In this document: piece after piece, positions 7,319-24,112 of the stretch
Layout: each line of letters starts with the position of its first letter
How positions within the stretch are numbered: position 1 is the stretch's first letter
Assembly (NCBI GenBank): GCA_964525635.1
Contig: CAZGJX010000051.1
Coordinates: forward strand, 1 to 27,804
Reading direction: 5' to 3'
Length of the DNA: 27,804 nt
DNA from: an uncultured archaeon
GTDB taxonomy: Archaea > Asgardarchaeota > Lokiarchaeia > Sigyniarchaeales > SOKP01
Program-made: the position numbers and the translations under genes
The notes under the pieces: model-generated
Told to the model about the DNA's origin: nothing
Database searches by the model: none
What the model saw: only the letters and a program-made list of their open reading frames with translations

Positions 7319-8569
7319 ATGTTATCTGATAAGTTAACAAAAAAGCATTTTTTTACTATAGAGGATTTTTTACAAAAATATGATATATTATTCTCATTAG
7401 ATATAAAAAAGGGGATATTACTTAATTTTGATATTGGATTAAAAAATCGTTCTCATAATATATTATCTATTTTACAATTAGCAAAAATAAAGCATGCTAA
7501 TAATATTTGCAATAACTTTATGAATGCATATAATGGCGCTCATCCATTCAAAATAATTGAAAATATAGATGAGATACAACATATGATTAGAAATCGAGAA
7601 TATATATATCTTATATTTAAAACTCAAGAAGAAAAAATATTTGGATGTGTCGGTGCAAAATTGGATTTTAAAAATAAAAGAGGGTATATATTTGGATTTG
7701 CTATCAAAAAACGTTATCAAGGAAAATGTGATAACAAAAAAATATACTTAAGTAGTTTAGTTTATTTTTTAAAACAATTTAAAAGTCAGATTCTAGTCTG
7801 GACAAGTGAATTGCGTCCAAATTCTAAAATATATGAGAAAGAAAAAAGATTTTTTGGATTAAAGCCAATAGCATTTATGCAAAATAAAGATATTTTTAAT
7901 AATCAAATAGAATCAGAATTTTTTACTATAATTCATGATAAATCTGTATTTCTAAAATACAAAACTCGAAAAAGAATTAAGATAATAAAACCAGTCTTAG
8001 ATTGTTATAATTATACCAATAAAAGATATAATTTAGGAAGACCTGTTATCAAAAATCCTATTTTAAAATTAAATAAAGAAAAAATACTTAGAATAAAGGA
8101 AGAAATTATTGTTAAAACTTTACTCGATAAATATAATGATAGTATTACAACGATACGTATTAAAAATACTGATTCTTATTTTCAATATCAATATAATTCA
8201 TATAGCAACAACATAGAGAATATAAATTATCATGTTGATGATTTAGAAGAGTTGGTAGTTTTTCTAAGGAGATTAAGAATGACTATGGAAGATAAAAGTA
8301 TACGATATGTTGAATGTTATGTATCTGCTTATTCTCCAAAACATCAGAAAATATTCTATAAAGCAGAATTTATACCAAGAGGTTATCTCCCATGGCTTCA
8401 ATTTAATAAAAAATCAAATTCATTCTATGATGTTATTTTATTCAATTATTCTAAAGAACCAATTGATCTTGAAATAGAGACTAATCTTATTTCAGACACA
8501 AAAGAATTATTTAAAATATCTTCTTACCAAAATAAAATAATGGAAATCCAAATAAATAATCTTAAATAG
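7319..8569 (+). CDS. Putative GNAT-family N-acetyltransferase (probably tandem GNAT folds)
   Basis: GYIFGFAIKKRYQGK resembles GNAT motif A. The C-terminal YVECYVSAYSPKHQKIFYKAEFIPRGYLP resembles GNAT motif B. Confidence 0.6.
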   Translation: MLSDKLTKKHFFTIEDFLQKYDILFSLDIKKGILLNFDIGLKNRSHNILSILQLAKIKHANNICNNFMNAYNGAHPFKIIENIDEIQHMIRNREYIYLIFKTQEEKIFGCVGAKLDFKNKRGYIFGFAIKKRYQGKCDNKKIYLSSLVYFLKQFKSQILVWTSELRPNSKIYEKEKRFFGLKPIAFMQNKDIFNNQIESEFFTIIHDKSVFLKYKTRKRIKIIKPVLDCYNYTNKRYNLGRPVIKNPILKLNKEKILRIKEEIIVKTLLDKYNDSITTIRIKNTDSYFQYQYNSYSNNIENINYHVDDLEELVVFLRRLRMTMEDKSIRYVECYVSAYSPKHQKIFYKAEFIPRGYLPWLQFNKKSNSFYDVILFNYSKEPIDLEIETNLISDTKELFKISSYQNKIMEIQINNLK

Positions 8570-14283: not shown

Positions 14284-16005
14284 TTATACTCCATTGATAA
14301 TTTTACACTTTGGTGTATAATATTCTCCTATTTCATAATTATTAAAATTAATACTGTAATGATCTCTCCAATGTTTTTTAATTTCTTCTATAGTTATTTG
14401 ATAAAGATCGTCCTTTATCTGTCCTTCTGATACTAAAGTGGCACCTATTGGACTTGTTACAATATTGCCATTATGAACAACAATTTGACCGTCTTTAACT
14501 GTATATACTGAATTTGAAAATGCCTTTTCTATAATATGACCATTTAAATGTTTAGGATCAAGTTTGTAAATAGATACATCTCCTATAGCACCTATTCCAA
14601 AATGTCCTCGATCTGTCATTCCTAGAGATTTAGAAGTACCGGCTCTTGTCATTATGCAGATTTCACTTAGAGTCAATTCACGATCAAGATTTGCTAAAGT
14701 TGTTTGAGAAGTAGCTTTCTTAGAAACTTGATTTTCAAGCATATCATTTCTTGATTTTTTATCCATTAACCATCTAATTATTTTTGGATAATAAATAAAA
14801 GGACCTCCATTAGGATGGTCAGTTGTCATAAAAATTTGCCATGGATTTTTAATCAATAGGGCTAATTCAAGACCTATTGCCCATTGAATTGCATTAACAC
14901 CAACTTTAGGATCAAAAAAGTATGGAACAATTCCTGAACCTGATTCACTTTCTACCTGACCATTAATCCATTTAACGCCTGGTTTTGAACCCCAGCTACT
15001 CATACCTCCTATATGATGGAGTGCAAATTCCCAAGGACCGTCAGCAGTCATGGTTGTGGTTGCTGCTTTAGAGAAAACAACTTGACCCATGTCCATGGTG
15101 ATATGATCGTGAGAATTTATATATTTTGCAATTTCAGGTGCTTCAGAACAGAAATTACTCCAATTAGATCCTCCATATGCATTAAATTGACAATGGGTAA
15201 AATGTAATACACTATCTCTTCCATTTTTGGCAGTTAATTTTTCTGCTATTTTGAAAGTTTCAAGAGAATATTCATAATTTCCTGGATGTCCCAGATTATT
15301 TCCATGGACATGAATAGTATGAGGTAATTTTAATATTTCATTTACTTTTCCTAATCCTTCTAGAATTTCTCTTGGACTTACTTCAAAATGAAAAACATGA
15401 TCATCAAGACTATCAACATTTTTTCCCCATGCCCAATTTTCAACTCCCCCAGGATTTACAATCTTCACAGCATATCCTTTTGTAACCTTTAAAATCCATG
15501 CTATATATCCTGCTAATTTTTTCCAGTCTCTCTGCTTGATGAATTCCATTACATACCAATTGTTTCCAAACAATGGAAAAGCTGCTTTATCAATTATTGG
15601 TATTGCTAAAAATTCTTCATGTGTATGTCGAGCCTCCAATAACGGCATAGCCGGTTCAACCACAGTTGTATAACCTAATTTGGCATAACGATATCCAGTC
15701 ACCCATGTTGAAGGTACAGAATATCCTACTCCTGATCTTGAGGTCTTAGTTCGTAGAACAGGATCTATAAAATGGTCTTCAGGTCGAAATGCTCTTCCTT
15801 TATTTACTTTCGGTCCTGCGATGTGAGAATGAATATCTACTCCACCAGGGAATATTATCATACCTGACACATCAATAACTTTTGCATTAATATCTGGATT
15901 CTCTGATATCAATCCCTCTTTTATATATATATCTTTTTTTTCACCATTTATTCCGTTAAGAGGGTCGTAGACCAGACCGTTTTTAATTGTTAGAGAATTC
16001 TTCAT
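14284..16005 (-). CDS. fwdA: Formylmethanofuran dehydrogenase subunit A (amidohydrolase)
   Basis: PGGVDIHSHIAGPKVN, GYRYAKLGYTT, AVKIVNPGG, IHVHGNNLG, HFTHCQF, TMTADGP, WAIGLE and TTDHPNGGPF. Confidence 0.94.
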   Translation of the reverse strand: MKNSLTIKNGLVYDPLNGINGEKKDIYIKEGLISENPDINAKVIDVSGMIIFPGGVDIHSHIAGPKVNKGRAFRPEDHFIDPVLRTKTSRSGVGYSVPSTWVTGYRYAKLGYTTVVEPAMPLLEARHTHEEFLAIPIIDKAAFPLFGNNWYVMEFIKQRDWKKLAGYIAWILKVTKGYAVKIVNPGGVENWAWGKNVDSLDDHVFHFEVSPREILEGLGKVNEILKLPHTIHVHGNNLGHPGNYEYSLETFKIAEKLTAKNGRDSVLHFTHCQFNAYGGSNWSNFCSEAPEIAKYINSHDHITMDMGQVVFSKAATTTMTADGPWEFALHHIGGMSSWGSKPGVKWINGQVESESGSGIVPYFFDPKVGVNAIQWAIGLELALLIKNPWQIFMTTDHPNGGPFIYYPKIIRWLMDKKSRNDMLENQVSKKATSQTTLANLDRELTLSEICIMTRAGTSKSLGMTDRGHFGIGAIGDVSIYKLDPKHLNGHIIEKAFSNSVYTVKDGQIVVHNGNIVTSPIGATLVSEGQIKDDLYQITIEEIKKHWRDHYSINFNNYEIGEYYTPKCKIINGV

Positions 16006-16207
16006 CTTTAAATACTAAAATTATAGCTATATAATTGATGAGATTTTGTACTATTATATCTTCTTCTAATTAAAAAAAGTAACATAACATAAAAATAGAT
16101 TTTTTATTTTAGAAAACTTAATTCCGATATCATCAGATTTCTTTAATTATATGATAATCAAGAAATTGATATTAAGGTTTTTTTGCCTAATTTTAGAACT
16201 TTCTAAA

Positions 16208-16350
16208 TTATTCAAATAGGTAAATTACAGTTACTAAAAATCTGGACATTTATGGACATCCTCTTTATTGACCTGTAACTGAAGGTCCTGACAACCCATA
16301 TAGGGAATATCAATATGTGGTGGAATTTTATGATAGTTCTTCTGTCTCTT
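16208..16350 (-). ncRNA. Predicted omegaRNA (reRNA): scaffold overlapping the tnpB 3' end plus a flanking guide; 5' boundary unknown
   Basis: On the minus strand, hairpin GACCT-TCAGTTAC-AGGTC (16287-16270) has a loop CAGTTAC complementary to the terminal GTAACTG (16234-16228). The putative guide is 16227-16208. Confidence 0.65.
16228..16260 (+). repeat. IS607 right end with two 10-bp-period subterminal repeats
   Basis: CAGTTACTAAAAA-TCTGGACATT-TATGGACATC (plus strand). Confidence 0.75.
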
Positions 16351-18630
16351 CACGATATTTCTTGAAGCATTAAGGTCAGAATCCAATCGAAATCCACAAT
16401 GGGAGCATTTAAAATGGTTTCCCTCCCGTATACCAATGGTTCCACAACAAGAGCATATTTTTGATGTGTTGCGAGCAGACACCTTCTGAAACTGTATGGA
16501 ATGTAATTGACATTGAAGCTGTAGTGCTGTTTGAATTTGTGAATAAAACCAATGAGTCTGCCAGAAGGATAAATACTTCCCAGCATCTTTTTTCCGTGAA
16601 TGAGACGCCCATCTTAAATCTTCGACCTTAATTGTTGAGATATTATAGTAGGTTGCAATTGAAAGTATCGCATGACTTAGGAGGTGAACTACGTGGTAAT
16701 GGAGGCGATGGAGGCGTTCCCAACAGAGGGAAAGGGTTCTTCTGATTTTATTCCAATTTAGTTTCTTACGATAATTAGAAATATTATTTTGTAATAGGCG
16801 CTGTTCATAGTTATTTTTCTTCTTTTGGAGCGCTTTTATTTGCTCACGAAGGCGTATAAGCTTTATTTTAATATTAGAGGGGGTTCTCCCTGAAGGAGGT
16901 ATGGTAAGAGAATTAAACGTACCCTCTGTATGATTGAATTTCATATCAAAGAGCTGTTTTGTACCAAGAAAATATCGTGCGATCTCTTTATTCTGCTCTT
17001 TATTCCATATACTTAAAACCGCTAAATGCTTTAATCCTAAATCTATTCCCATCTCAAGTGCGCAATTTTGAGCAATCAGAGATGGTTTCGAACAATCTTT
17101 TTTGTGTGTTTGAAAAGGAAGGTGTAAAAGCAATTTACGGTTTTTTAACGATATTCTTGGAAGAGCAGGGATAAAGTGATTATGGAGAAGTTGCTTAATT
17201 CTCCCTTTCTCATCTTTTATTTTAAATGTCTTAAATTGATGAGCTAATAGACCTAATTTAATTAAAAAATCCTTCTTTTGTTCTTTATTTCCAAAATATT
17301 CCTTATATACATCTCGATTGATAACTGAAAGTGATAGCATTTTATGATGGGGTATTGCTATAATAGATAGTATATTTTCTTTCAACGTTTGGAGGCGGCT
17401 ATTCATTAAAGAAATAATCTGCTCAGAAATTACCTCCTCTTTTAAGAGTTCTCGAATCTTGTATTGAAGCTTAGTGGTAAAATAGGTGATAAAAGCATCA
17501 TAATGCATCCCATCTATTGGAATTTTAGGAAAATGAGGCTTAAATAACCTTCTAAGCACATATTGGTTGTGATGTTGTTTTATATCCAACAGCTCACTTT
17601 CAAAACTCTTTTGTATAAGGAGATCTATTTCAAATGATTTAACTCTCTTCTTAAGTTCTTTTTGAAATGGCTTTAAAATCAGAGCTTGCTTCTTTTTAAA
17701 TTCATGTTGTGAAGAGAATGTAGTCTCTCCAATTAAGAGTGAGAGAGAAGTACTTATTTTGTCTAAACTTAGGTGAAAAGAGGAAAGTTTAGTTTTCTTC
17801 TTTTTCTCTTGTTCCTGTTTTATTTTCTTTTTCAATGAAAGTATTTGCTGAGCTTTTCTGGTGGTTATCCATTGAAGTTGTCGTATATAGCAATCTACCA
17901 TGTAGTCCGTAAGATCAGAAGGAAGAACTGAAATTCTATTGCCTTTCTTTGTTCTATGAAAGCCAGTTGAAATTTGCCCAATCAGATCATCCGTAAGATG
18001 TAGATTTTGAACGCTTTCTCTCATTTTTGCTTGTAGGGCGTTTGAGCCGCTATACTCTGAATAGAGAGATTCCATCCCAAAATCATTGCACGAGAGAAAG
18101 AGATTCCTCACTTGTAGTATGTAATTATTGAGAAAATCATTACTTAAATCCTGTCTTTTTCCAAAACAATCATTTCTCAGTAATTTTTTTATTTCTTTTA
18201 ATGTTTCTGAGCGAAATCGCTTACCTCTAAGAAAAGAAAGAGTAAATGCTCTATCCTTCCTAATTATGTCTGTTAAATAACCAATAATTCGCTTAAGATT
18301 TTCAACTCGCTTTATCCATTCCCTTACAGATAAATAAGCATCATAAAAAGCACATTGTTTTGCTCGTTCTTTTAGCTTTAATTTCTGAAATTGAGAAGAG
18401 AGAACTTGACTAAAATTAAGACGATCATACACCGCTTGGCGAAATCTGCTTATTGATGATGATTTGTAAGAATGATATGAATTTTCTTTTATATCAGCAA
18501 TCATTAACGCTGTATACCTATTTTTCAATGCTCGTTCTTTTACAAGAAGATTGGTCATTTCTTTATAGGATTGATAAGGGCGTTTTTGAGGAAGGAGTGC
18601 AAATGTCCGAGTAATGGTTATTGCTGACAT
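16234..18630 (-). CDS. tnpB: RNA-guided endonuclease TnpB (Cas12/Fanzor-related), unusually large (798 aa)
   Basis: RuvC-I MGIDLGLKHLA (D530), RuvC-II IKVEDL (E670), Zn finger TSKICSCCG...FKCSHCG, RuvC-III DSDLNASRNI (D752). Lies downstream of IS607 tnpA. Confidence 0.9.
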   Translation of the reverse strand: MSAITITRTFALLPQKRPYQSYKEMTNLLVKERALKNRYTALMIADIKENSYHSYKSSSISRFRQAVYDRLNFSQVLSSQFQKLKLKERAKQCAFYDAYLSVREWIKRVENLKRIIGYLTDIIRKDRAFTLSFLRGKRFRSETLKEIKKLLRNDCFGKRQDLSNDFLNNYILQVRNLFLSCNDFGMESLYSEYSGSNALQAKMRESVQNLHLTDDLIGQISTGFHRTKKGNRISVLPSDLTDYMVDCYIRQLQWITTRKAQQILSLKKKIKQEQEKKKKTKLSSFHLSLDKISTSLSLLIGETTFSSQHEFKKKQALILKPFQKELKKRVKSFEIDLLIQKSFESELLDIKQHHNQYVLRRLFKPHFPKIPIDGMHYDAFITYFTTKLQYKIRELLKEEVISEQIISLMNSRLQTLKENILSIIAIPHHKMLSLSVINRDVYKEYFGNKEQKKDFLIKLGLLAHQFKTFKIKDEKGRIKQLLHNHFIPALPRISLKNRKLLLHLPFQTHKKDCSKPSLIAQNCALEMGIDLGLKHLAVLSIWNKEQNKEIARYFLGTKQLFDMKFNHTEGTFNSLTIPPSGRTPSNIKIKLIRLREQIKALQKKKNNYEQRLLQNNISNYRKKLNWNKIRRTLSLCWERLHRLHYHVVHLLSHAILSIATYYNISTIKVEDLRWASHSRKKDAGKYLSFWQTHWFYSQIQTALQLQCQLHSIQFQKVSARNTSKICSCCGTIGIREGNHFKCSHCGFRLDSDLNASRNIVKRQKNYHKIPPHIDIPYMGCQDLQLQVNKEDVHKCPDF

Positions 18631-18703
18631 AATGTATTATACATAAGGAGATAAAACCAGAAATGAGACAAATATATTTAATGATGCAGAGAGAATTGAT
18701 TTT

Positions 18704-19312
18704 CTAATTTTTTCCTTGTTCAGTACGTCTCATCCGGTAGAGCTTTCCGCTAAAAGAGTGAATGATTGCTACAAGATCCTCAATTAATTCGCTCTCGGGA
18801 CTTTTATCGTCTAACTTATTAATACAGAGAAGGGAGATATTAAATTCTAATAAATAACTTTTTAAATACATATATCCAAATCGAGTAAGTCTATCTTTAA
18901 AATTCAGTAATACAATTGAAAAATCATGCTTTTTACCGTCTCTGATGAGTTTCCATAATCCTTTTCTTGTTGTATTTAATCCTGAACCAATATCCTTGTA
19001 GACCTTAATGATACAAAGATGATTCACCAGAGCATAGCGCTTTAAAGCTTCAATTTGCCGATCTAAGCCCCCTCTTTTTGATTGTTTATGGCTTGAAACC
19101 CTAGCATAGATTGCACATTTTAAGTTTGGAGACTCTAATTCAATAGAAGGGGTTTTTCTATGTCTCAGTAAGAGCCTTCTTATTTCATCCATAGAAATCC
19201 TTCGATGACCTCCAAGCGTTCTCACACAGCATATCTTCTTTTTTAATTCCCATCTTCTTATTGTTTTTATACATACACCTAAAATTGAAGCAGCAATTCC
19301 AATAGAATACAT
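18704..19312 (-). CDS. tnpA: IS607-family transposase TnpA (MerR-like HTH plus serine recombinase)
   Basis: N-terminal HTH (AASILGVCIKTIRRWE..RTLGGHRR), catalytic AIYARVSS, DIGSGLN, DRLTRFG and ELIEDLVAIIHSFSGKLY. Confidence 0.94.
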   Translation of the reverse strand: MYSIGIAASILGVCIKTIRRWELKKKICCVRTLGGHRRISMDEIRRLLLRHRKTPSIELESPNLKCAIYARVSSHKQSKRGGLDRQIEALKRYALVNHLCIIKVYKDIGSGLNTTRKGLWKLIRDGKKHDFSIVLLNFKDRLTRFGYMYLKSYLLEFNISLLCINKLDDKSPESELIEDLVAIIHSFSGKLYRMRRTEQGKN

Positions 19313-19377
19313 AATTCATTAAGAAAACAAGTTGATAATAAAAGAATATATGATAATTATAACAGAACCATTTATTA

Positions 19378-19410
19378 AGTGTCCAGATTTGTATAGAAAA
19401 ATGACAACTA
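19378..19410 (-). repeat. IS607 left end with two 10-bp-period subterminal repeats
   Basis: Minus strand TAGTTGTCATTTT-TCTATACAAA-TCTGGACACT aligns without gaps, in inverted orientation, to the right end. Confidence 0.75.
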
Positions 19411-19545
19411 TGAATTTACACTAAAAATCAAATTTTATAAAAAAAAGACAAGTTAATTGTTATTCTTTTTTCTGAATATAAAATAAAATATTCATTCATG
19501 GAAATTAACCATATTTTAATATTCATCAATGAATTAATATTTATC

Positions 19546-21841: not shown

Positions 21842-24112
21842 TTATGATTTAATAAAAATATAAACCAATACATCATCATTTGAATATATTGATGAATAAT
21901 TGGATGAATTCATTATATTTTCTAATATGGTGTAATAGTTAATTTCACCAGTGAGTTGAAATAGTTCTGATCTATATTTATATGATACAGATAAATAAAT
22001 TAAATGAGTTTCATTAAATTGATGTAAATCATAATCACCTATTAAAATATAGTGGCTATTTGATTCATCCCAAATAACAAATTCCTCTTTTATTTGATTA
22101 TCTGATTTTAACTCATAATATCTAAGACAATTATAACAATATATTTGACATGGTGTCTTAGAATAAGCTAAAATATTATAACCGGGATAATTTTGATTAA
22201 TATATTGAGCAGCTTCCACTTCTCCTGGGTATATTATATTAAATTTTTCATTTCCAAATTTTGCCGGTAAAAATAAAACAGATAAGATTAAAAAACCCAA
22301 AAAATATAAGGCTAATTTATTTTTTTTTTTAATTATTTTCTTTCCTATATCAACAGAAATAATGATACAAAATATTGGTAAAATAAACAAATACATTCTT
22401 TGTAAAAATTCATCACTGTAAAATTGGATGAAAAAAATTGTAAAAAAGGAAATTGTAATTATAAAAAAAAAAGCTAACATAAACCATTTTGTATAAAATA
22501 AGTGTTTTAATTTTGATTTTTTAAGATTTTTAACGAAAAATATAAATAATGGTATTATTGCAAAGAATAATATTAGAGATGTGAGGATTAATCTGAAAGA
22601 GATTGTTATTAATCTCTCAGTAGTACCTCTTATAATACCTAATAACTCTATTAAGGAATTAAAATTCATGTTTGTTATCCTATCTATTATATTAGGGAAA
22701 TTTCTCTGGAACCATTTAGATTGTACAAATATATAAAATAAAATGGAAATAACGATAATTAATATAAAAAAATAAACAATTTTTCTATGATTTGAACTCT
22801 TTTGATTCTTATCAAAATTTTTTTTCTTTCTATAAATTAAGAATTGGTATATTATCCAGAGAAAAGAGATACAAACAGAAAATAAAAATGTTAATAGATG
22901 TATTTGGTATAAAATAATTAATAATATAATTAAAATTAAGAAATCTTTCTTATATTTTTTTTTTTCTATAAAATTGTATTTTAGTAATATTATTAAAATA
23001 ACTAAAAAAAATAAAAAACCAAAACTTTGAGGGGCATAATAATCTTGAGAGATAAAATCTGCAAAATTGAAAAATATTATAAAAAGAAATGTAATTTTGT
23101 ATTTTTTTTCTTTATTTATTTCATTATTTGGATAGAGATTTTCTAATATAACATGAGAAAGCTTAATTAGAATAATACTTAAAATAAATCGATAAATAAT
23201 AGGATAGAATATTAAAAAATTAAGTTTGAATATATTATCTATACTAAATAAAAAGAAGGAAAAAACCAAAAAAAAACCTGGCCAAGTATGATAAAAACAT
23301 ACATTTGAATTTAGTTCTTTGTTTTGAATAACATATTCAACAAATGAAAAGACTTTAGCACCTGACTGAATTCTTGGTTCCCCAATAATAATTGGAGATA
23401 ATATTTGTGTATATAAAATTAATAAAATAATTAGAAAATATTGTTGATACTTGTTTGATGGATATTTAAGTGATATTACAATAGATAAAATTAATAATAT
23501 TAATCCAATATAGTAATAAGGGGGGAGTATATCAAGGAATCCTAAATTACTAGGAGTGATTGGAGTATCATAAGTTATTACTAAAAACCATGAAAATAAA
23601 CTAAATGATGATAAAATCCATAATATAATCGGAGGTGGAATATATCTATATTTAATATAGTATTTTTGTGATTCTTCTTTTCCTTTTTTTAATAAATGTG
23701 AATTACTTTGAAAAATAATATTGGTTAAATCTTCTAAGTAAAAAATTTTAATTTTAATTATTATTATAAAATTTATTATTAAAGCTTCAATACCTATTAA
23801 AAGTTGAATAATTTGAAAATTTAGTTCTTTATAAAAAAAATCAACTATTAATCCAATAAAAATAATACTTCCTAAAGAGAGAAGCAAACTAACTAATAAA
23901 ATATATAATAAATCAGGTTTTAATAAAACGCTATACACCTTGAGAAATAATAAAATGCTAATATATAGAAAAAAGAAAATTATTATAGATATAATAGAAT
24001 TATAGAAAAATATAGATAGAATACTGAGTATTAGAATCGATATAATATGAATTGTATAAAGTATAAAAATTAAAAAATTAGATTTATATGTCTGATTATT
24101 ACCGTTTTTCAT
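21842..24112 (-). CDS. Polytopic membrane protein, possible GT-C-fold glycosyltransferase or polymerase
   Basis: More than 12 hydrophobic segments, loop motifs FYHTWPGFF and QDYYAPQ, a C-terminal soluble domain ending IYSNDDVLVY, and location in a glycan cluster. Confidence 0.6.
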   Translation of the reverse strand: MKNGNNQTYKSNFLIFILYTIHIISILILSILSIFFYNSIISIIIFFFLYISILLFLKVYSVLLKPDLLYILLVSLLLSLGSIIFIGLIVDFFYKELNFQIIQLLIGIEALIINFIIIIKIKIFYLEDLTNIIFQSNSHLLKKGKEESQKYYIKYRYIPPPIILWILSSFSLFSWFLVITYDTPITPSNLGFLDILPPYYYIGLILLILSIVISLKYPSNKYQQYFLIILLILYTQILSPIIIGEPRIQSGAKVFSFVEYVIQNKELNSNVCFYHTWPGFFLVFSFFLFSIDNIFKLNFLIFYPIIYRFILSIILIKLSHVILENLYPNNEINKEKKYKITFLFIIFFNFADFISQDYYAPQSFGFLFFLVILIILLKYNFIEKKKYKKDFLILIILLIILYQIHLLTFLFSVCISFLWIIYQFLIYRKKKNFDKNQKSSNHRKIVYFFILIIVISILFYIFVQSKWFQRNFPNIIDRITNMNFNSLIELLGIIRGTTERLITISFRLILTSLILFFAIIPLFIFFVKNLKKSKLKHLFYTKWFMLAFFFIITISFFTIFFIQFYSDEFLQRMYLFILPIFCIIISVDIGKKIIKKKNKLALYFLGFLILSVLFLPAKFGNEKFNIIYPGEVEAAQYINQNYPGYNILAYSKTPCQIYCYNCLRYYELKSDNQIKEEFVIWDESNSHYILIGDYDLHQFNETHLIYLSVSYKYRSELFQLTGEINYYTILENIMNSSNYSSIYSNDDVLVYIFIKS

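Follow-up and report, generated by a model that had tools for sequence, protein, structure and literature searches.

The DNA analyzed here, hereafter the window, is a 27,804-nt stretch (positions 1–27,804 of contig CAZGJX010000051.1, GenBank assembly GCA_964525635.1) of an uncultured archaeon. It carries a complete IS607-type insertion sequence (IS), which is 3191 bp in size (positions 16227–19417, AAATTCATAG...AGTAACTGT) and contains two genes, tnpA and tnpB; like the element itself, all its features lie on the minus strand. The tnpB gene (16234–18630) encodes a TnpB protein of 798 amino acids (aa), whose DED triad and zinc finger are intact, as indicated by open reading frame (ORF) calling, Pfam, NCBIfam, motifs, sequence alignment and an AlphaFold2 model. 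The tnpA gene (18704–19312) lies 73 nt upstream of tnpB; it encodes one 202-residue IS607 serine recombinase, composed of a MerR-type helix-turn-helix and a resolvase domain. TnpA scored 168.7 bits against NF033518 (cut-off 110), and Pfam identified both its Resolvase and its MerR domains. The gene downstream of tnpB encodes formylmethanofuran dehydrogenase subunit A (fwdA). The host is an Asgard archaeon (Promethearchaeota, Loki), and FwdA, TFIIB and RNase HII are archaeal housekeeping neighbours of the element. An earlier prediction, made from the sequence of the window, held that so large a TnpB would matter more in an Asgard host, and this is the host that was found; the group comprises the closest prokaryotic relatives of eukaryotes.

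The RuvC-I, RuvC-II and RuvC-III motifs and the TNB zinc finger occupy residues 525–765 (16336–17058) of TnpB, as supported by Pfam and NCBIfam, motifs, and profile and fold matches to the PDB. Asp530 is from GIDLG (starting at residue 528), Glu670 from KVEDL (668) and Asp752 from DSDLNAS (750). Glu670 is at the canonical position, 56 aa ahead of the zinc finger, whose cysteines are arranged as Cys726-x-x-Cys729 and Cys742-x-x-Cys745. The RuvC acidic residues and the CxxC..CxxC motif claimed by the original prediction are thus all present, and Asp530, Glu670, Asp752, Cys726 and Cys742 are unchanged across 39 aligned homologs. The prediction also proposed an insertion after RuvC-I, reaching from EIARYFLG to PSNIK, which stood only in part: EIARYFLG, beginning at residue 549, belongs to β-strand 3 of RuvC (residues 548–555) in the AlphaFold2 model, whereas the loop of residues ~556–586, at the end of which PSNIK begins (residue 584), varies in length between homologs and is lineage-specific. 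In Pfam, Cas12f1-like_TNB (PF07282) matched residues 696–759 with 62.5 bits (cut-off 26.3), identifying a TNB (zinc-ribbon) domain located between RuvC-II and RuvC-III; the OrfB_IS605 match is weak, and all TnpB matches in Pfam are confined to the C-terminal part. The NCBIfam matches to guided_TnpB, Cas12f2 and IS607_TnpB (39 bits, below its cut-off) all fall in the last ~270 aa.

The structure of TnpB was modeled by AlphaFold2 using the family alignment, with a mean predicted local distance difference test (pLDDT) score of 82.8. The model follows the order of WED strand, REC, WED, RuvC and TNB, which is the topology of TnpB and Cas12f. One β-strand (residues 3–14) is followed by helices from residue 20 to residue 423, apart from one small hairpin, and by β-strands at residues 432–509; the RuvC sheet starts from residue 525, the zinc ribbon covers residues 713–750, and the tail (residues 766–798) is disordered, with pLDDT of ~30. 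In the model and in structure alignment, the WED β-strands of residues 432–509 (17104–17337) are completed by the N-terminal strand, and the segment in between forms one expanded all-helical REC lobe (residues 20–423, 17362–18573). Cas12f was the top fold in both Foldseek and VIA searches; AsCas12f gave a Z score of 17.0, with 362 residues aligned and a root-mean-square deviation of 4.2. ISFba1 TnpB (Z 15.0), Fanzor2 (9b0l, Z 14.6) and ISDra2 TnpB (Z 14.1, 340/362 aligned) also matched. All of these structures span the model from residues 2–5 to residue ~766, yet for Cas12f and TnpB only ~340–380 residues are aligned. Because these alignments start at residues 2–5, the N-terminal strand is taken as the canonical first WED strand, and the extra mass of the modeled protein would be a REC expansion between WED strand 1 and the remaining WED, not an N-terminal fusion. 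The structural comparison with ISDra2 TnpB, Cas12f and Fanzor that the original prediction called for thus gave TnpB/Cas12f topology with an enlarged REC. The prediction had placed about 300 extra residues at the N-terminus as an expanded REC-like lobe; the model agrees with the enlarged helical REC and places the growth inside the protein.

In a joint alignment, 431 aa precede the WED/RuvC core of this protein, compared to 65–125 aa in typical TnpBs of 344–437 aa; the REC has ~400 aa of helices instead of ~100 aa, and the WED/RuvC core is also ~90 aa longer. The REC is rich in Lys and Arg, and its conservation extends over 39 sequences with identities as low as 21%. Arg89 and Arg103 are invariant among these homologs, and Lys87, Glu88, Trp105, Arg108, Gln173, Arg175 and Asn176 are nearly invariant; owing to the presence of such residues, the N-terminal half can be regarded as a conserved part of one protein. 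When folded alone, the REC reached a pLDDT of 91.4. With the REC-only model, Foldseek found no convincing match in the PDB (best E 0.13), and a wide VIA search gave a best Z of 7.5, on coiled-coil pieces. In the ESM Atlas, the searches by shape gave template modelling scores of no more than 0.30, and the searches by features gave only hypothetical proteins. As modeled, the REC appears to have no convincing solved match, which does not prove a new fold.

The unmatched fold may also be read in another way: the TnpB core could be standard and the large REC could do other work, such as docking TnpA or DNA-repair or chromatin factors of the host, or serving as an RNA-guided regulator or targeting module, instead of being a better duplex clamp. 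It would agree with this that some relatives have more N-terminal mass (up to 1890 aa, one with a retropepsin-like domain) and that just ~50 aa of the REC are recognisably common with the Heimdall long forms. However, the REC is placed canonically between WED strand 1 and the remaining WED, its Lys/Arg-rich composition and invariant Arg residues resemble those of nucleic-acid-binding lobes, and the catalytic triad is kept family-wide. We consider this alternative unlikely, and favour a REC that acts on the guide–target duplex of an RNA-guided nuclease.

The ends of the element were defined through a second copy. Three short contigs carrying the homolog P0004 (L013, L014 and L015) are 98.8% identical to the window, only over 19436–16227, and their flanks are unrelated. 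The empty site of the P0004 insertion (L013) was found in the window's own genome (G000:C191, ~position 222). The empty site reads ..TTTTGTGT|TGATAAAAAC (TGATAAAAAC begins TGATAAA); the occupied site reads ..TTTGTGT, then the element AAATTCATA...AGTAACTGT, then TGATAAAAAC, or in short form ..TTTGTGT[AAATTC..AACTGT]TGATAAA. As the empty and occupied sites fix the junctions, the element runs from 19417 to 16227 and is 3191 bp in length. There is no target duplication, and the junctions share a TGT/GT core, as in IS607 insertions; a serine recombinase would require such a core. At the right end, which is 7 nt past the tnpB stop in the window, homology stops exactly after ..AGTAACTGT; all family loci share the final ..TGTCCAGATTTTTAGTAACTGT and differ from the following base on. 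The right end carries one subterminal repeat, TGTCCAGATTT (16238–16248), and ATGTCCA occurs again 10 bp upstream of it; the repeat is conserved in the family down to 28% protein identity. Its inverted partner AAATCTGGACA (19380–19390) is located at the left end, and the two constitute an 11-bp inverted repeat.

In three genomes of the same genus, the flanking genes of the element (phosphoribosyltransferase and fwdA) are adjacent, 130–350 bp apart and without IS; this comparison shows only IS absence, the intergenic DNA being too diverged for base-by-base alignment. An empty site at the window locus was not found in contigs of four metagenome runs, in which the element occurs away from the window flanks and one left-end/right-end internal-deletion joint is present. 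The right-end motif has 12 copies in the genome, six of them at contig ends, compared to none for the reversed control. Two ORF-less mini-elements, 573 bp (G000:C93:1725–2297, L108:950–1522) and 390 bp (G000:C128:4577–4966, L111:1133–1522) in sizes, both keep the left end, the hairpins and pseudoknot of the guide RNA module described below, and the right end, with AGTGT on the left flank. The genome also contains a second autonomous IS607 element (G000:C22:18006–21050, L113), which encodes a 215-aa TnpA and a 733-aa TnpB of 30–36% identity. Its right-end variant (..GCAACGGT) was also found at six contig ends, and this subtype is therefore probably multi-copy, breaking the assembly. Taken together, these observations indicated that the TnpB element family is mobile, and recently so. 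With the IS607 tnpA beside tnpB inside the mapped element, this enlarged TnpB is still tied to its transposon, as had been predicted. The G+C content is 0.32–0.35 over the IS and fwdA (15001–19000), compared to 0.20–0.27 across the greater part of the window.

The last ~110 nt of the element (16227–16335), which overlap the codons of the disordered protein tail (residues 766–798), appear to be the scaffold of an omegaRNA, as suggested by covariation, single-sequence folds and synonymous constraint. When each homolog was folded singly, the same three hairpins were found in the last ~90 nt. In the window, covariation and folding place hairpin 1 (H1) at 16311–16290, H2 at 16287–16270 and H3 at 16261–16244; by covariation, the H2 loop (CAGTTAC, 16281–16275) forms a pseudoknot with the 3′ tail (GTAACTG, 16234–16228). 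Covariation was counted over H1, H2, H3 and the pseudoknot on a 19-sequence alignment, using slid helices and 500 shuffles as controls. With 89.2% of the cells paired and 61 double-change cells, the values are higher than those of the slid controls (30–42% and 12–24, respectively), and none of the 500 shuffles scored as high. Changes on both sides occurred in 6/9 pairs of H1, 4/5 pairs of H2 and 4/7 pairs of the pseudoknot. A structured RNA at the 3′ end of the gene, finishing at the right end of the transposon, is thus supported by covariation. Rfam gave no matching family for the omegaRNA, only two sub-threshold chance matches.

Apart from one peak at residues 496–555, synonymous-codon identity rises only across residues 766–795, in the last ~33 codons, where it goes from ~0.48 to 0.73; in several homologs, the ORF ends before the omegaRNA hairpins. 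Owing to this constraint and to the earlier stops, the disordered C-terminal tail can be explained as a side effect of translation continuing into the RNA gene. The other peak (0.67–0.74, window positions 16966–17145) surrounds the end of WED and RuvC-I, well away from the omegaRNA, and may reflect either an overlapping signal or simply codon bias where the sequence is highly conserved.

According to the homology stop and the known TnpB mechanism, the predicted guide starts at 16226 in the flank; the 20 nt directly beyond the right end are AATTTACCTATTTGAATAAT (16207–16226). The candidate transposon-associated motif (TAM) is the GTGT on the left flank (19418–19421), whose final GT or TGT coincides with the crossover core that the insertion junctions share. 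GTGT is on the left flank of 7 independent insertions with right end ..CTGT, and GGGT on that of 4 insertions with right end ..CGGT. In the pseudoknot, the base that varies is itself paired (column pair 124–197), as A-U in 12 sequences and C-G in 6. At position −4, all targets have G and all donor joints have C. The proposed TAM is G(T/G)GT, and the difference at −4 would let TnpB cut empty sites and spare its own right end.

Before this is taken as a working system, the locus has to be compared with a decaying relic, in which the ORF is open by chance or is catalytically dead in a way not visible in the motifs, and the 3′ conservation reflects only recombinase-binding DNA. This subtype is present in a single copy in the genome, several homologs are split or truncated (P0218 follows a 426-aa ORF), and tnpA is broken in three loci (L007, L009 and L016), all as expected of a relic. 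Different from a relic, both genes in the window are of full length, a 98.8% identical copy is present at a different site, and the REC remains conserved over the 39 sequences at identities as low as 21%. Moreover, hairpins and pseudoknot show compensatory changes, which indicate RNA pairing and which a serine recombinase acting on double-stranded DNA is not expected to need. We regard decay as quite improbable, and the locus as a real and probably active TnpB/omegaRNA system.

We propose the following mechanism for the element, with a probability of about 80% for an autonomous IS607 with an omegaRNA-guided, REC-enlarged 798-aa TnpB. As an autonomous IS607-family insertion sequence in the Lokiarchaeon chromosome (19417–16227), it would be moved in double-stranded form by TnpA into G(T/G)GT sites, with crossover in the GT/TGT core and no target duplication. 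TnpB would be an omegaRNA-guided RuvC nuclease, whose scaffold is formed by the last ~110 nt of the element through three hairpins and the pseudoknot linking the hairpin 2 loop to the 3′ tail. Transcription would run past the right end, and the read-through flank would supply the guide. The complex would then cut element-free copies of the site, in which the TAM GTGT is followed by a guide match, and repair would restore the transposon; the donor joint would be spared, as −4 is C there, not G. The ~400-aa helical REC may grip the guide–target duplex. With the ends, the guide RNA module, the predicted guide and the candidate TAM all located, direct bench tests of the system are possible.

Several points weigh against this proposal. 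The TnpB structure is a prediction. With 75.1 bits, TnpB is below the cut-off of 100 for guided_TnpB (NF040570), and this model covers only the C-terminal ~170 aa (residues 587–762). The omegaRNA helices were partly read off the same sequences that were used for counting; H3 overlaps the recombinase-binding repeats and may thus owe part of its conservation to the DNA itself. The TAM was derived from 11 junctions, and its last 2–3 bases are inseparable from the crossover core. For the phylogeny given below, sequences were collected according to their similarity to the query, and the tree holds no Cas12, Fanzor or ISDra2-type references.

The original prediction considered that the N-terminal half might come from misassembly or a one-off fusion with no full-length homologs. 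At least 65 homologs were found in a word-indexed search, most of them 720–860 aa in size and covering 95–100% of the query; the nearest one is 98% identical and named Lokiarchaeota. Misassembly or one-off fusion was ruled out by these 65 homologs, mostly of full length, and by the presence of the 98% identical copy in three separate assemblies. A profile search over 1.84 billion representatives gave 146 clusters at E<1e-30, some of 1000–1900 aa. Among species-representative genomes, near-whole-protein matches all come from Promethearchaeota (Loki) metagenome-assembled genomes (MAGs), while Heimdallarchaeota and others match TnpB only from residue ~360 on. The REC profile is present in 11 of 301 sampled Asgard species genomes, a patchy distribution that fits a mobile element. 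True short relatives of the core were not found; close matches of ≤437 aa at >35% identity are contig fragments, and the one short match that was checked (P0218, 414 aa) is half of a split gene, following a 426-aa ORF.

In addition, several individual loci can be described. The split tnpB (426 and 414 aa) of L102:963–5631 lies between two ORFs that both match PF27218 (MJ0043_C), an arrangement that would result if the element inserted into a PF27218 gene or beside a duplicate of it. The relatives of 1250–1890 aa, P0069 (L010:5001–9341), P0086 (L011:393–6065), P0088 (L012:2096–5848) and that at L056:424–4497, add 450–1100 further N-terminal residues without Pfam match; P0088 also contains one retropepsin-like aspartyl protease domain (residues 100–192). 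L045 (CAZNQJ010000193.1, 4154 bp) is a short contig binned as Campylobacterales; it encodes an 867-aa member of the long clade, so that either archaeal DNA was binned wrongly or a transfer to bacteria took place. Elsewhere in the window, two ORFs have no Pfam match at E≤1e-4, 21842–24112 (minus strand, 756 aa) and 7319–8569 (plus strand, 416 aa).

A maximum-likelihood tree was built from 337 core columns. All 27 forms of at least 600 aa are on one side of a branch supported with 98 in the Shimodaira–Hasegawa-like approximate likelihood ratio test, and 16 short forms are outside. The long forms fall into three groups: one Loki clade that includes the window protein (99), one Heimdall clade (97) that includes one Campylobacterales MAG contig and a 1357-aa archaeal protein, and one clade of other Promethearchaeota MAGs, including Promethearchaeum sp. 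(94). The tree shows a coherent long clade, not where this clade belongs among all TnpBs. Between the Loki and Heimdall forms, the common REC is recognisable over only ~50 aa (the KER..CA..Y helix).

TnpB, at ~400 aa, is regarded as the miniature ancestor from which Cas12 arose, and growth of the REC is usually tied to life as a CRISPR effector or, in Fanzor1, to eukaryotic genomes. Against this background, one broader proposal can be made, although we hold it tentatively and at somewhat less than even odds: an Asgard clade of transposon TnpBs (620–870 aa, with relatives to ~1900 aa) may have reached the size of Cas12 and Fanzor1 independently, with a REC unlike solved folds, before capture by CRISPR or transfer to eukaryotes. 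If so, the enlarged lobe would give, for example, a longer or more specific guide–target duplex or action as a monomer, and the clade would be a natural intermediate for the growth from miniature TnpB to large effector as well as a new genome-editing scaffold. Cas12-like enlargement can arise inside a transposon, as this 800-aa TnpB is still the passenger of a recently mobile IS607. The system offers a test of what REC enlargement gives to an RNA-guided nuclease, together with a new protein/RNA pair for editing tools.

In the literature on TnpB with Asgard, Lokiarchaeota and IS607, no published description of this TnpB family was found, though it may sit unnamed in large trees; nor did we find a matching large-TnpB clade already described, into which the original prediction thought the protein might fall. 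Two papers on Asgard mobilomes do not mention TnpB. The paper classifying TnpB and Cas12 names Asgard only for Cas1-linked TnpBs (PMC10691335), and in one survey, after a filter of 350–550 aa, REC expansion was not seen in prokaryotic TnpB lineages.

The last alternative is a Cas12 variant, with the protein acting as a type V CRISPR effector that uses an array elsewhere in the genome. Its size is Cas12-like, its closest solved sequences and folds are Cas12f, and it has one partial match to Cas12f2 in NCBIfam. However, this match (62 bits) is far under the cut-off of 450, and the gene belongs to a transposon that also carries tnpA and a 3′ guide RNA module of its own. In agreement with the original prediction, no tandem or CRISPR array is present in the 27,804-nt window, and no CRISPR array was called beside homologs at the loci examined. 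We find this alternative hardly credible, and compare the protein with known systems below as a transposon-borne, omegaRNA-guided TnpB.

Cas12f proteins (AsCas12f, OsCas12f and Un1Cas12f1) are the best matches of TnpB both in PDB profiles (E 3e-16) and in folds (Z 15.6–17.0). Different from Cas12f, which is 400–530 aa in size and CRISPR-associated, this TnpB is transposon-borne, has no array and has a large REC. Cas12f proteins act as dimers. The large Cas12 proteins (such as Cas12a, Cas12b and Cas12i) are similar in overall size and in REC accretion on a TnpB core (PMC10691335), and their cores aligned with Z scores of 13–15; in contrast, the REC-only model finds no Cas12 REC, and the element has no CRISPR or adaptation module. 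Like the present system, Fanzor is linked to IS607 and has the RuvC/zinc-finger core (Fanzor2 9b0l, the fold match given above), and the REC of Fanzor1 is expanded to at least 600 aa. However, the Fanzor signature (DPG, a shifted RuvC-II Glu and RDxxxxxN; Yoon et al.) is absent here, where GIDLG, the canonical Glu670 and DSDLNASRN are found, and a PDB sequence-profile search returned neither Fanzor nor ISDra2 TnpB at E≤1. The hosts of Fanzor are eukaryotes and giant viruses, whereas this element is in a Promethearchaeota chromosome. The Fanzor link hinted at by the original prediction is thus unsupported.

Compared to typical TnpBs of 300–450 aa (PMC10691335), the present protein is twice as long, with the ~400-aa REC and ~90 aa more in the WED/RuvC core. 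Different from known TnpB families, it is under the NCBIfam cut-offs of guided_TnpB and IS607_TnpB, and its RNA is without Rfam match. The closest systems in organization are ISDra2 TnpB and the reRNA-associated IS607 TnpB of ISFba1, which have the same WED-REC-RuvC-TNB topology, DED triad and zinc finger, with tnpA upstream. Their systems of obligate mobile element-guided activity (OMEGA), which belong to IS200/IS605 and IS607 elements, are also alike: the RNA is pseudoknotted, overlaps the ORF at its 3′ end and terminates at the element's right end, the guide is outside, and the TAM, for which we have a candidate here, is the target motif on the left flank. Compared to these systems, the mechanism is of a known kind; the size, the REC lobe and the restriction to Asgard archaea are new.

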